5,545 bases of DNA, from IMG/VR virus record IMGVR_UViG_2529292726_000016; one strand, written 5' to 3'. The notes under the pieces are model-generated. The model saw nothing but the letters and a program-made list of their open reading frames with translations. It was not told where the DNA came from and searched no databases. Within the stretch, counting starts at the first letter, position 1. Every line of letters begins with the position of its first letter. Of this stretch, positions 1 through 5,545 are shown one piece after another. This DNA comes from a virus (taxonomy: Duplodnaviria; Heunggongvirae; Uroviricota; Caudoviricetes). The translations under genes and the position numbers were made by a program.

Positions 1-141
1 CAGCGAAGGCAGTAACAAGCGCGACTTGATGTCGCACTGAAGGGTGCGGCCAGTATAGTTGGCGCGAGTCGGCAAAACTAGTTGACGTCTAATATCGGCA
101 ACTTTGGCGGCTTCCTTTCCATTAACAAACTTTCGCAGTAA
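1..141 (+). other. Possible 3' remnant of the upstream tail gene (gpL-like tail tip protein); not open in any forward frame across this stretch
   Basis: Frame 1 has TAA at 13..15 and TAG at 79..81, then a 19-codon open stretch (LTSNIGNFGGFLSINKLSQ) ending at TAA 139..141, 5 nt before the K ATG. Frame 2 stops at 38..40, 56..58 and 83..85; frame 3 stops at 27..29 and 90..92. The terminal peptide resembles what I recall of the lambda gpL C-terminus, and frame 3 encodes CRTEGCGQ (gpL-type proteins have C-terminal cysteines), but I cannot verify either. Confidence 0.3.
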
Positions 142-146
142 ATCCC

Positions 147-890
147 ATGACACAGACAGAATCAGCGATTCTGGCGCACGCCCGGCGATGTGCGCCAGCG
201 GAGTCGTGCGGCTTCGTGGTAAGCACGCCGGAGGGGGAAAGATATTTCCCCTGCGTGAATATCTCCGGTGAGCCGGAGGCGTATTTCCGTATGTCGCCGG
301 AAGACTGGCTGCAGGCAGAAATGCAGGGTGAGATTGTGGCGCTGGTCCACAGCCACCCCGGTGGTCTGCCCTGGCTGAGTGAGGCCGACCGGCGGCTGCA
401 GGTGCAGAGTGATTTGCCGTGGTGGCTGGTCTGCCGGGGGGCGATTCACAAGTTCCGCTGTGTGCCGCATCTTACCGGGCGGTGCTTTGAGCACGGGGTG
501 ACGGACTGTTACACGCTGTTCCGGGATGCTTATCATCTGGCGGGGATTGAGATGCCGGATTTTCATCGCGAGGATGACTGGTGGCGTCACGGTCAGAATC
601 TCTATCTGGATAATCTGGAGGCCACGGGGCTGTATCAGGTGCCGTTGTCAGCAGCACAGCCGGGCGATGTGCTGCTGTGCTGTTTTGGTTCATCGGTGCC
701 GAATCATGCCGCCATTTACTGTGGTGATGGCGAGCTGCTGCACCATATTCCTGAACAACTGAGCAAACGAGAGAGGTACACCGACAAATGGCAGCGACGC
801 ACACACTCCCTCTGGCGTCACCGGGCATGGCGCGCATCTGCCTTTACGGGGATTTACAACGATTTGGTCGCCGCATCGACCTTCGTGTGA
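147..890 (+). CDS. K: Tail tip assembly protein K (JAB/MPN metallopeptidase plus NlpC/P60 cysteine peptidase), long form
   Basis: ORF 147..890, 247 aa, TGA stop at 888..890. Complete JAMM signature H68-x-H70-x7-S78-x2-D81 (HSHPGGLPWLSEAD, nt 348..389) with a candidate upstream Glu (E19). Downstream is an NlpC/P60-like region with candidate catalytic Cys121 (GVTDCYTLF) and His residues (PNHAAIYCGDGELLHH). Start is uncertain: ATG 147 has no clear SD but lies 5 nt after a TAA; internal ATG 291 (MSPEDW) has GGAGG at 275..279 and would give the 199-aa form annotated in lambda, which lacks the N-terminal part of the JAB fold. Confidence 0.9.
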   Translation: MTQTESAILAHARRCAPAESCGFVVSTPEGERYFPCVNISGEPEAYFRMSPEDWLQAEMQGEIVALVHSHPGGLPWLSEADRRLQVQSDLPWWLVCRGAIHKFRCVPHLTGRCFEHGVTDCYTLFRDAYHLAGIEMPDFHREDDWWRHGQNLYLDNLEATGLYQVPLSAAQPGDVLLCCFGSSVPNHAAIYCGDGELLHHIPEQLSKRERYTDKWQRRTHSLWRHRAWRASAFTGIYNDLVAASTFV

Positions 891-1459
891 AAACGGGGGC
901 TGAAGCCATCCGGGCACTGGCCACACAGCTCCCGGCGTTTCGTCAGAAACTGAGCGACGGCTGGTATCAGGTACGGATTGCCGGGCGGGACGTCAGCACG
1001 TCCGGGTTAACGGCGCAGTTACATGAGACTCTGCCTGATGGCGCTGTGATTCATATTGTTCCCAGAGTCGCCGGGGCCAAGTCAGGGGGCGTATTCCAGA
1101 TTGTCCTGGGGGCTGCCGCCATTGCCGGATCATTCTTTACCGCCGGAGCCACCCTTGCAGCATGGGGGGCAGCCATTGGGGCCGGTGGTATGACCGGCAT
1201 CCTGTTTTCTCTCGGTGCCAGTATGGTGCTCGGTGGTGTGGCGCAGATGCTGGCACCGAAAGCCAGAACTCCCCGTACACAGACAACGGATAACGGCAAA
1301 CAGAACACCTATTTCTCCTCCCTGGATAACATGGTTGCCCAGAGCAATGTTCTGCCCGTTCTGTACGGTGAAATGCGCGTGGGGTCACGGGTGGTTTCTC
1401 AGGAGATCAGCACGGCAGACGAAGGGGACGGTGGTCAGGTTGTGGTGATTGGTCGCTGA
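788..1459 (+). CDS. I: Tail assembly protein I (N-terminal ubiquitin-like beta-grasp domain ending in Gly-Gly, then hydrophobic Gly/Ala-rich segment)
   Basis: ORF 788..1459, 223 aa, TGA at 1457..1459, the same length as lambda gpI. RBS-like GAGAGG at 771..776. Residues 14-101 end in ...HIVPRVAGAKSGG (Gly-Gly codons at 1085..1090). Next comes a roughly 55-residue hydrophobic stretch with repeated GxxxG/AxxxG spacing (VFQIVLGAAAIAGSFFTAGATLAAWGAAIGAGGMTGILFSLGASMVLGG), then a polar C-terminal tail. The 5' end overlaps the K 3' end by 103 nt in a different frame. Confidence 0.9.
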   Translation: MAATHTLPLASPGMARICLYGDLQRFGRRIDLRVKTGAEAIRALATQLPAFRQKLSDGWYQVRIAGRDVSTSGLTAQLHETLPDGAVIHIVPRVAGAKSGGVFQIVLGAAAIAGSFFTAGATLAAWGAAIGAGGMTGILFSLGASMVLGGVAQMLAPKARTPRTQTTDNGKQNTYFSSLDNMVAQSNVLPVLYGEMRVGSRVVSQEISTADEGDGGQVVVIGR

Positions 1460-1477
1460 TGCAAAATGTTTTATGTG

Positions 1478-1500
1478 AAACCGCCTGCGGGCGGTTTTGT
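1478..1500 (+). promoter_or_regulatory. Stem-loop in the I-J intergenic region (weak terminator or attenuator-like, or an mRNA structural element)
   Basis: Perfect inverted repeat AAACCGCC (1478..1485) / GGCGGTTT (1490..1497) around loop TGCG, followed by T-rich sequence (ttttgtcgttt). It lies between the I stop (1459) and the J RBS (GGAG 1508..1511, ATG 1520). Confidence 0.4.
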
Positions 1501-1519
1501 CGTTTATGGAGCGTGAGGA

Positions 1520-2515
1520 ATGGGTAAAGGCAGCAGTAAGGGGCATACCCCGCGCGAAGCGAAGGACAACCTGAAGTCCACGCAGTTGCTGAGTGTGATT
1601 GATGCCATCAGCGAAGGGCCGATTGAAGGTCCGGTGGATGGATTAAAAAGCGTGCTGCTGAACAGTACGCCAGTGCTGGACAGTGAGGGGAATACCAATA
1701 TCTCCGGCGTCACGGTGGTGTTCCGGGCAGGTGAGCAGGAGCAGACACCGCCGGAGGGATTTGAATCCTCCGGCTCCGAGACGGTGCTGGGTACGGAAGT
1801 GAAGTACGACACGCCGATTACCCGGACCATCACGTCTGCAAACATCGACCGTCTGCGCTTTACCTTCGGTGTGCAGGCACTGGTGGAAACCACCTCAAAG
1901 GGGGACCGGAATCCGTCGGAAGTCCGCCTGCTGGTTCAGATACAGCGTAACGGTGGCTGGGTGACGGAAAAAGACATCACCATTAAAGGCAAAACCACCT
2001 CGCAGTATCTGGCCTCGGTGGTGGTGGATAACCTGCCGCCGCGCCCGTTCAACATCCGGATGCGCAGGATGACGCCGGACAGCACCACAGACCAGCTGCA
2101 GAACAAAACGCTCTGGTCGTCATACACCGAAATCATCGATGTGAAACAGTGCTACCCGAACACGGCACTGGTCGGCGTGCAGGTGGACTCGGAGCAGTTC
2201 GGCAGCCAGCAGGTGAGCCGTAATTATCATCTTCGCGGGCGCATTCTGCAGGTGCCGTCGAACTATAACCCGCAGACGCGGCAATACAGCGGTATCTGGG
2301 ACGGAACGTTTAAGCCGGCATACAGCAACAACCCGGCCTGGTGTCTGTGGGATATGCTGACCCACCCGCGCTACGGCATGGGGAAACGTCTTGGTGCGGC
2401 GGATGTGGATAAATGGGCGCTGTATGTCATCGGCCAGTACTGCGACCAGTCAGTGCCGGACGGTTTTGGCGGCACGGAGCCGCGCATCACCTGTAATGCC
2501 TGGCTGACCACGTAG
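1520..2515 (+). CDS. J: J N-terminal fragment (331 aa) ending at the in-frame amber codon
   Basis: ORF from the track, MGKGSSKGHTPREAKDNLKSTQLLSVIDAISEGPIEGP..., the conserved N-terminus of lambda-family J proteins. Terminates at TAG 2513..2515. Confidence 0.8.
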   Translation: MGKGSSKGHTPREAKDNLKSTQLLSVIDAISEGPIEGPVDGLKSVLLNSTPVLDSEGNTNISGVTVVFRAGEQEQTPPEGFESSGSETVLGTEVKYDTPITRTITSANIDRLRFTFGVQALVETTSKGDRNPSEVRLLVQIQRNGGWVTEKDITIKGKTTSQYLASVVVDNLPPRPFNIRMRRMTPDSTTDQLQNKTLWSSYTEIIDVKQCYPNTALVGVQVDSEQFGSQQVSRNYHLRGRILQVPSNYNPQTRQYSGIWDGTFKPAYSNNPAWCLWDMLTHPRYGMGKRLGAADVDKWALYVIGQYCDQSVPDGFGGTEPRITCNAWLTT

Positions 2516-4918
<2,403 letters not shown>

Positions 4919-4935
4919 ATTTTATAACCCAGAAC

Positions 4936-4963
4936 GGGCGTCAGAAATGACGCCTTTTTTATT
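4936..4963 (+). terminator. Rho-independent terminator between J and lom
   Basis: Perfect 7-bp GC-rich stem GGCGTCA (4937..4943) / TGACGCC (4948..4954) with GAAA tetraloop, immediately followed by TTTTTTATT (4955..4963). It sits 18 nt downstream of the J stop. Confidence 0.75.
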
Positions 4964-4984
4964 GCAGAAAAGCGAGAGGTAATT

Positions 4985-5545
4985 ATGCGTAAACTTTATG
5001 CCGCCATTTTGTCCGCAGCCATTTGTCTGGCCGTATCCGGTGCGCCTGCATGGGCGTCTGAACATCAGTCCACGCTGAGCGCTGGGTATCTTCATGCCCG
5101 GACGAACGTTCCCGGCAGTGATGATCTGAACGGGATTAACGTGAAATACCGTTATGAGTTTACGGACACACTGGGGCTGGTTACGTCATTCAGCTATGCA
5201 GGAGACAAGAATCGCCAGCTGACCCATTACAGCGATACCCGCTGGCATGAAGATTCCGTGCGTAACCGCTGGTTCAGCGTGATGGCGGGGCCGTCTGTAC
5301 GCGTGAATGAATGGTTCAGCGCGTATGCGATGGCAGGCGTGGCTTACAGCCGTGTGTCGACTTTCTCCGGGGATTATCTCCGCGTAACTGACAACAAGGG
5401 GAAAACGCACGATGTGCTGACCGGAAGTGATGACGGTCGCCACAGCAACACGTCTCTGGCGTGGGGGGCTGGCGTGCAGTTTAACCCGACCGAATCCGTG
5501 GCCATTGATATTGCTTATGAAGGCTCCGGCAGTGGCGACTGGCGC
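4985..5545 (+). CDS. lom: Lom outer-membrane protein (Ail/Lom/PagC/OmpX family beta-barrel), 5' partial, runs off the window end
   Basis: ATG at 4985 with SD GAGAGG (4973..4978). The frame is open to the window end (187 codons): MRKLYAAILSAAICLAVSGAPAWA|SEHQSTLSAGYLHARTNVPGSDDLNGINVKYRYEFTDTLGLVTSFSYAGDKNRQL.... It has a typical Sec signal peptide with an AWA-S cleavage site and alternating aromatic/hydrophobic beta-strand patterns, and matches lambda Lom as I recall it. It is absent from the ORF track only because no stop falls inside the window. Confidence 0.92.
   Translation, partial: MRKLYAAILSAAICLAVSGAPAWASEHQSTLSAGYLHARTNVPGSDDLNGINVKYRYEFTDTLGLVTSFSYAGDKNRQLTHYSDTRWHEDSVRNRWFSVMAGPSVRVNEWFSAYAMAGVAYSRVSTFSGDYLRVTDNKGKTHDVLTGSDDGRHSNTSLAWGAGVQFNPTESVAIDIAYEGSGSGDWR

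Follow-up and report, generated by a model that had tools for sequence, protein, structure and literature searches.

The first 94 nucleotides of the window (the whole 5,545-nt stretch of DNA that was analysed) belong to the insertion sequence ISEc10, and represent neither a degraded tail gene L nor a phage spacer. It is very probable that the window starts within a copy of this element which has inserted into gene L of a lambda-like prophage, an ordinary prophage-decay event which here falls at the very start of a draft contig. Downstream of the IS lies a short 3' remnant of L, after which come K (from position 147), I, J and the start of lom. The coordinates of these features, and of the loci with which they were compared, are collected in Table 1.

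The window is identical to draft contig APXK01000138.1 (assembly GCA_000356245.1, E. coli 2875150) over the full 5545 bp of that contig, and its J fragment has been given accession ENB14513.1 (Escherichia coli 2875150). Because short-read assemblers cannot resolve repeated insertion sequences the contig begins 94 bases inside the multi-copy ISEc10, and since the assembly breaks in this repeat the sequence upstream is unreadable from it. APXK01000088.1, from the same assembly, likewise terminates within an ISEc10 copy, 313 nt into it. Both ends of APXK01000138.1 lie at repeat boundaries. At the right end, in lom, the last 309 nt (window 5237–5545) match lom-region sequence of the other prophage described below (L010, 18192–18500) with 96.8% identity.

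Table 1. Features of the window and of the loci compared with it; positions are those of the window unless another record is named, and A and B are the two prophages of CP025886.1
Feature	Position	Strand	Remarks
ISEc10 right end	1–94	+	positions 2317–2410 of the 2410-bp IS21-family element; 100% identity, 94 nt
istB 3' end, frame 3	1–29	+	last 8 codons (AKAVTSAT) and TGA at 27–29; annotated istB ends at the same base
ISEc10 non-coding right terminus	30–94	+	inverted-repeat arm at about 47–94, ending ...GACGTCTAATA
TCGGCA, right-hand copy of the 6-bp target-site duplication	95–100	+	TCGGCA on both sides in CP025886.1
Severed 3' remnant of lambda-type minor tail gene L	95–141	+	last 47 nt, ...(V)GNFGGFLSINKLSQ; TAA 139–141 is the stop of L itself
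Stops in frame 1	TAA 13–15, TAG 79–81, TAA 139–141	+	translation of the window
Stops in frame 2	38–40, 56–58, 83–85	+	translation of the window
Stops in frame 3	TGA 27–29, TAA 90–92, TAA 123–125	+	translation of the window
Tail assembly gene K	147–890	+	247 aa, intact; JAB and NlpC/P60 domains (Pfam)
A/B alternation zone	441–728		18 informative sites; left of 441 purely B, right of 728 purely A
Informative sites	140–384		n = 9; window = B
Informative sites	441–517		n = 5; window = A
Informative sites	560–623		n = 4; window = B
Informative sites	626, 651		n = 2; window = A
Informative site	653		n = 1; window = B
Informative site	659		n = 1; window = A
Informative sites	707–728		n = 5; window = B
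Informative sites	779, 916 and beyond		n = 2+; window = A
Tail tip gene J with amber codon	1520–4918	+	TAG 2513–2515 (CAG in relatives); called as 331-aa and 795-aa fragments
Prophage A	CP025886.1, 2.55 Mb; 2.545–2.566 Mb		intact L, K, 190-aa I, J amber (331 + 795 aa), intact lom
Prophage B	CP025886.1, 3.95 Mb; 3.952–3.973 Mb		L::ISEc10, K, 180-aa I, intact 1159-aa J, split lom
ISEc10 insertions in prophage structural regions	L007 3095, L008 3095, L009 3095; L020 1–1886; L022 1–313

A similarity search with window 1–94/96 returned ISEc10 copies of 100% identity in 591 E. coli genomes, as well as on plasmids of E. coli and other Enterobacterales (560 records); the copies are annotated “IS21-like element ISEc10 family helper ATPase IstB.” The full IstB translation terminates in KTAKAVTSAT, in agreement with frame 3 of the window, and the protein matches PF01695 (Pfam, E = 9.5e-62). 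We set the boundary of the element at base 94 from five independent ISEc10 insertions with different flanks: the copies extracted always start TATGAGACG... and finish with the same ...GACGTCTAATA that ends at window base 94. The terminal inverted repeats of a full copy are imperfect, with 48-nt arms which are 71% complementary, the right arm being window 47–94. A 6-bp direct duplication is present at all four of the other ISEc10 insertions, one each in lom, a portal gene, the interval between D-like and E-like head genes, and an island.

Insertion of IS elements into prophage structural genes is a routine route of prophage decay. ISEc10 was found repeatedly in the structural regions of lambdoid prophages, namely in lom, in the portal gene, in the gap between the D-like and E-like genes and at the terminase gene of prophage A, with a clean 6-bp duplication at each such insertion of which both sides are visible. 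The element is able to transpose in E. coli under laboratory selection (PMC7482066).

The original prediction was built upon stop codons in all three forward frames of window 1–146, and these do occur at the positions that it gave. No forward ORF runs from the window edge toward the region upstream of K in any of the three frames of 1–146. A random frame of 48 codons has a chance of about 10% of being open, so that stops in three frames over 146 nt are ordinary for non-coding DNA; the notable point is that the reading frame expected for L is missing, rather than any statistical excess of stops. A complete reading frame matching PF05100 (Phage_tail_L) is absent, and the window possesses 47 nt of L, including 14 complete codons, directly upstream of K in the order L-K-I-J-lom. 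A promoter and terminator scan of window 1–400 found no sites.

In alignments, window 95–141 agrees at every base with the 3' end of intact L genes, that of lambda included. The alignments of intact L genes begin at base 95, and the similarity splits cleanly at 94/95. Upstream of base 95 intact L reads ...TGTAAGTTTCGCAATAACG, which is unrelated to window 76–94; where the window has the tip of the IS the native gene reads ...KFRNNVGNFGGFLSINKLSQ. The 19 codons at 82–138 (LTSNIGNFGGFLSINKLSQ) had been described as resembling a protein C-terminus. This description holds for 95–138, which derive from L and encode the last two bases of a Val codon and then GNFGGFLSINKLSQ, but not for the LTSNI portion, which is encoded by the tip of the insertion sequence and has a chance resemblance to the native L ...NNV.

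Two explanations had been offered for the missing frame. The first would have the 3' end of L extend over the whole of 1–141 and carry nonsense and/or frameshift point lesions, a view to which the L-frame stops TAG 79–81 and TAA 13–15, lying ahead of the C-terminus-like peptide, lend some appeal. We attach next to no credence to it: bases 1–94 are without any similarity to L and are 100% identical to ISEc10, and 95–141 do not contain a single mutation, that is, the lesions postulated for the end of L are absent. The second, which is highly improbable, would place the end of the upstream tail gene at or before the start of the window, leaving 30–141 as an unusually long non-coding phage spacer. 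A gene stop does sit at 27–29, and 30–94 are non-coding, but the gene that stops there is istB of the insertion sequence and not a tail gene. The supposed spacer is made up of the IS terminus (30–94) and of bases (95–141) which are L coding sequence in every intact relative, and the native gap between L and K is 4–5 nt.

Based upon the reading that we prefer, ISEc10 would have transposed into L of a lambda-like prophage 41 nt before the L stop codon, 47 bases from the end of the gene, and transposition would have duplicated the 6-bp target TCGGCA. Of this duplication only the right flank (95–100) lies within the window. The left junction to be expected under simple insertion would be ...AATAACGTCGGCA joined to TATGAGACGAC..., i.e. 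...CGCAATAACGTCGGCA/TATGAGACGACAATAAC.... To the left of the IS, L would read ...AAC GTC GGC A/TA TGA, so that residues 1–219 would be followed by Ile and by a TGA contributed by the left end of the IS (TA-TGA-G...). The predicted truncated product would thus be 220 aa in length, minus the last 13 conserved residues. PF05100 spans L to residue 230; intact L matches positions 1–206 of the profile, and the putative truncated product would match 1–193, with 194–206 lost. Judging from the sequence, loss of just 13 C-terminal residues might leave L functional, and transcription of K-I-J would presumably now have to traverse 2.4 kb of IS.

The predicted product, L(1–219) plus Ile, was built on four L alleles, each of which was searched by exact sequence in a collection of 15 billion proteins. 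The version constructed from the L004 allele (JAAPHT010000059.1) is present on exactly one contig, the closed chromosome CP025886.1, while the three other alleles (lambda, L003 and L006 types) gave versions that the collection lacks. The order of the locus in CP025886.1 is H - M - L' (220 aa) - istA (499 aa) - istB (251 aa) - K - I - J (1159 aa), and the IS within L is 2410 bp long with TCGGCA on both flanks. Compared with this insertion locus window 1–440 has no mismatches, the right junction being 100% identical. None of 5,426 complete RefSeq E. coli genomes covers the IS/L junction, nor did the exact 35-nt junction pattern have a match in GTDB representative genomes; support for the junction therefore comes from one closed genome and this draft. 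No useful literature was found on CP025886, APXK01 or the strain numbers.

In strain 2875150 itself the IS could instead mark the endpoint of a deletion or rearrangement, in which case the 5' part of L and the left arm of the prophage would not lie beyond it. The window shows one side of the IS only, and the 220-aa truncated L is on record for CP025886.1 and not for the source assembly. We nevertheless regard such an endpoint as very unlikely, since in the closed relative an identical right junction belongs to a simple insertion with a perfect 6-bp duplication; moreover, the truncated L could easily have been missed in the gene calls of the draft, the 3' 500 nt of L being a two-copy repeat. 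Given that the right junctions are identical and the two strains closely related, we infer a simple insertion with the same left junction in strain 2875150.

The two lambda-like prophages of CP025886.1 are in the same orientation, 1.4 Mb apart, and have in common an L-K segment of 1547 bp that is 96% identical. Prophage A has further lesions, its terminase gene adjoining ISEc10 and its H gene being split by IS21-like and IS66 elements; prophage B has in addition, close to its tail fibre genes, an IS66 element and one with a Y1 transposase. The same two prophages occur in a second closed relative, CP025851.1, without the L insertion and without the J amber, and their arms are paired alike. In the source assembly the left arm of prophage A is found with the same 619-aa H fragment (APXK01000088.1), and the B-specific 64-aa lom fragment is recorded under strain 2875150 (ENB16768.1, a protein accession alone), which suggests that both tail modules are present there. 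Source-assembly contigs for the A-type H fragment-M-L or for the B-type lom fragment were not among the matches listed (10 per look-up).

Beyond the tail fibre genes of prophage A in CP025886.1 (L003, 17873–20549) we observed a gene for a reverse transcriptase (RVT_1, 456 aa) adjoining a gene with a SLATT_5 domain, at the end of the prophage. The latter is split by IS1 in CP025886.1, and an intact version occurs in L025 (14024–15923). The RVT_1 and SLATT_5 pair looks like retron- or DRT-type defence cargo.

The amber codon in J results from a single C-to-T change (CAG to TAG) at codon 332. It is common to the closed genome CP025886.1 and to the draft JAAPHT010000059.1, and is therefore a real mutation of this lineage, not a read error. 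Close relatives (L011, L012, and CP025851.1 in L029) have CAG and a full 1132-aa J. It had been suggested that lesions in L, together with the J amber, would point to a prophage with multiple tail-gene defects. In so far as L is defective and the material is that of decaying prophages this is correct, but that the L and J lesions belong to one prophage is doubtful: in CP025886.1 the ISEc10 insertion in L and the J amber reside in separate prophages, although each of these has several lesions of its own.

We think it probable that the contig is a cross-join of co-resident prophages A and B through their near-identical L-K segment of about 1.5 kb, with K representing a mixed consensus. The IS-cut L would then belong to prophage B, whose J is intact, and the J amber to prophage A, whose L is intact. 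A repeat of 96% identity, such as that formed by the A and B L-K segments, is of the kind that short-read assemblers collapse. The window has no mismatches to B over 1–440 and none to A over 729–5545. A and B differ at 29 informative sites in 95–987, across which the window switches seven times from one allele to the other and has no private differences (Table 1). In every natural allele aligned sites 623/626/651/653/659 are linked as C-A-T-A-A or G-G-G-G-G; the window has C-G-G-A-G. The best match to window 430–740 among 14,635 places in 5,426 complete E. coli genomes is 98.7%, and that to window 95–1000 in complete E. coli genomes is 99.0%; the exact K mosaic is absent from all of the approximately 14,600 copies of K that these genomes contain. 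On the opposite side stands the K protein, which, unlike the K DNA, is common to other drafts. Taken with the distance of 1.4 Mb between L::ISEc10 and the J amber in the relative, the patchwork in K suggests that the link between the two defects is probably an artefact of assembly.

Alternatively, the contig may be faithful, with recombination or gene conversion between the resident prophages having placed a patchwork K, A-type I, the amber-bearing J and lom behind the IS-cut L, and having produced one prophage with both tail defects. A shared segment of 1.5 kb at 96% identity is a good substrate for recombination, natural K alleles are themselves mosaic (that of L011, for example, is B-like to 384 and A-like after), and APXK01000138.1 has been recorded in 2 samples. 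This we consider doubtful, since in neither closed genome of the lineage is the left arm of one prophage combined with the right arm of the other, and since, given the shared orientation of A and B in CP025886.1, reciprocal exchange would result in deletion or duplication of the stretch between them. The single-site alternation at 651/653/659 and 623/626 breaks a linkage seen in every natural allele examined, a pattern suggestive of mixed reads merged into a consensus column by column. The mosaic is, furthermore, unique among the K copies searched, and the source strain also has the B-right marker (lom fragment). A more specific form, namely that the contig is correct and that very fine gene conversion between the two co-resident prophages, with tracts ranging from a few bases to some 100 bp, rewrote K, is unlikely. 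If true, fine conversion would have brought together the IS-cut L and the amber J, and the contig would have captured conversion between prophages in the course of their decay.

A natural third allele of K was also considered, and was rejected on account of the absence of private substitutions together with the broken site linkages, which are kept in all natural alleles inspected.

The draft contig JAAPHT010000059.1 (L004, 1–14836), a short-read contig of 28.6 kb, carries a B-type head/tail left arm with an intact B-allele L, joined to A-type K-I-J(amber)-lom. This pairing of arms contradicts both closed genomes of the lineage, and the contig is probably a second cross-join at the same L-K repeat. 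The lambda record J02459.1 (L002) is one base short at window 281, in K, relative to the window and to all other lambda-type sequences aligned. It is because of this missing base that J02459 is annotated with a K of 199 aa, versus 247 aa elsewhere.

An apparent mutated gene end at the edge of a window or contig can thus be the tip of a repeat element, and defects which occur together on a short draft contig need not share one prophage. The biological weight of the insertion itself is small; ISEc10 is a known, active element of E. coli, and with gpL predicted to lose its last 13 residues only, inactivation of the tail tip of that prophage would be a minor question.

Set against known systems, the insertion of this IS21-family element into a lambda-type tail gene is a textbook case, an event of a type already known and with nothing new in kind. 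The window shares with ISEc10 the same terminal 94 nt, the istB stop and the imperfect inverted repeat, and the flanking TCGGCA fits the 6-bp duplication of the closed genome; there is no difference in sequence, the window holding just the last 4% of the element as the contig breaks there. The pair istA (DDE transposase) and istB (AAA+ helper) is complete at the insertion in CP025886.1, whereas the window has only the last 8 istB codons. With lambda gpL (PF05100) there is identity over the last 47 nt, the canonical L-K-I-J-lom order, and a K gene which starts 5 nt past the L stop; unlike that of lambda the gene is cut, and its putative product would be the 220-aa protein lacking the last 13 residues. 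Defective lambdoid prophages of pathogenic E. coli that are riddled with IS elements resemble the two of the closed relative in having several insertion sequences and point lesions (J amber, split lom), with no substantive difference. Collapsed-repeat or chimeric short-read contigs are likewise similar, in their start in a multi-copy IS, in the 1.5-kb, 96% identical two-copy segment and in the site-wise mixture of alleles.
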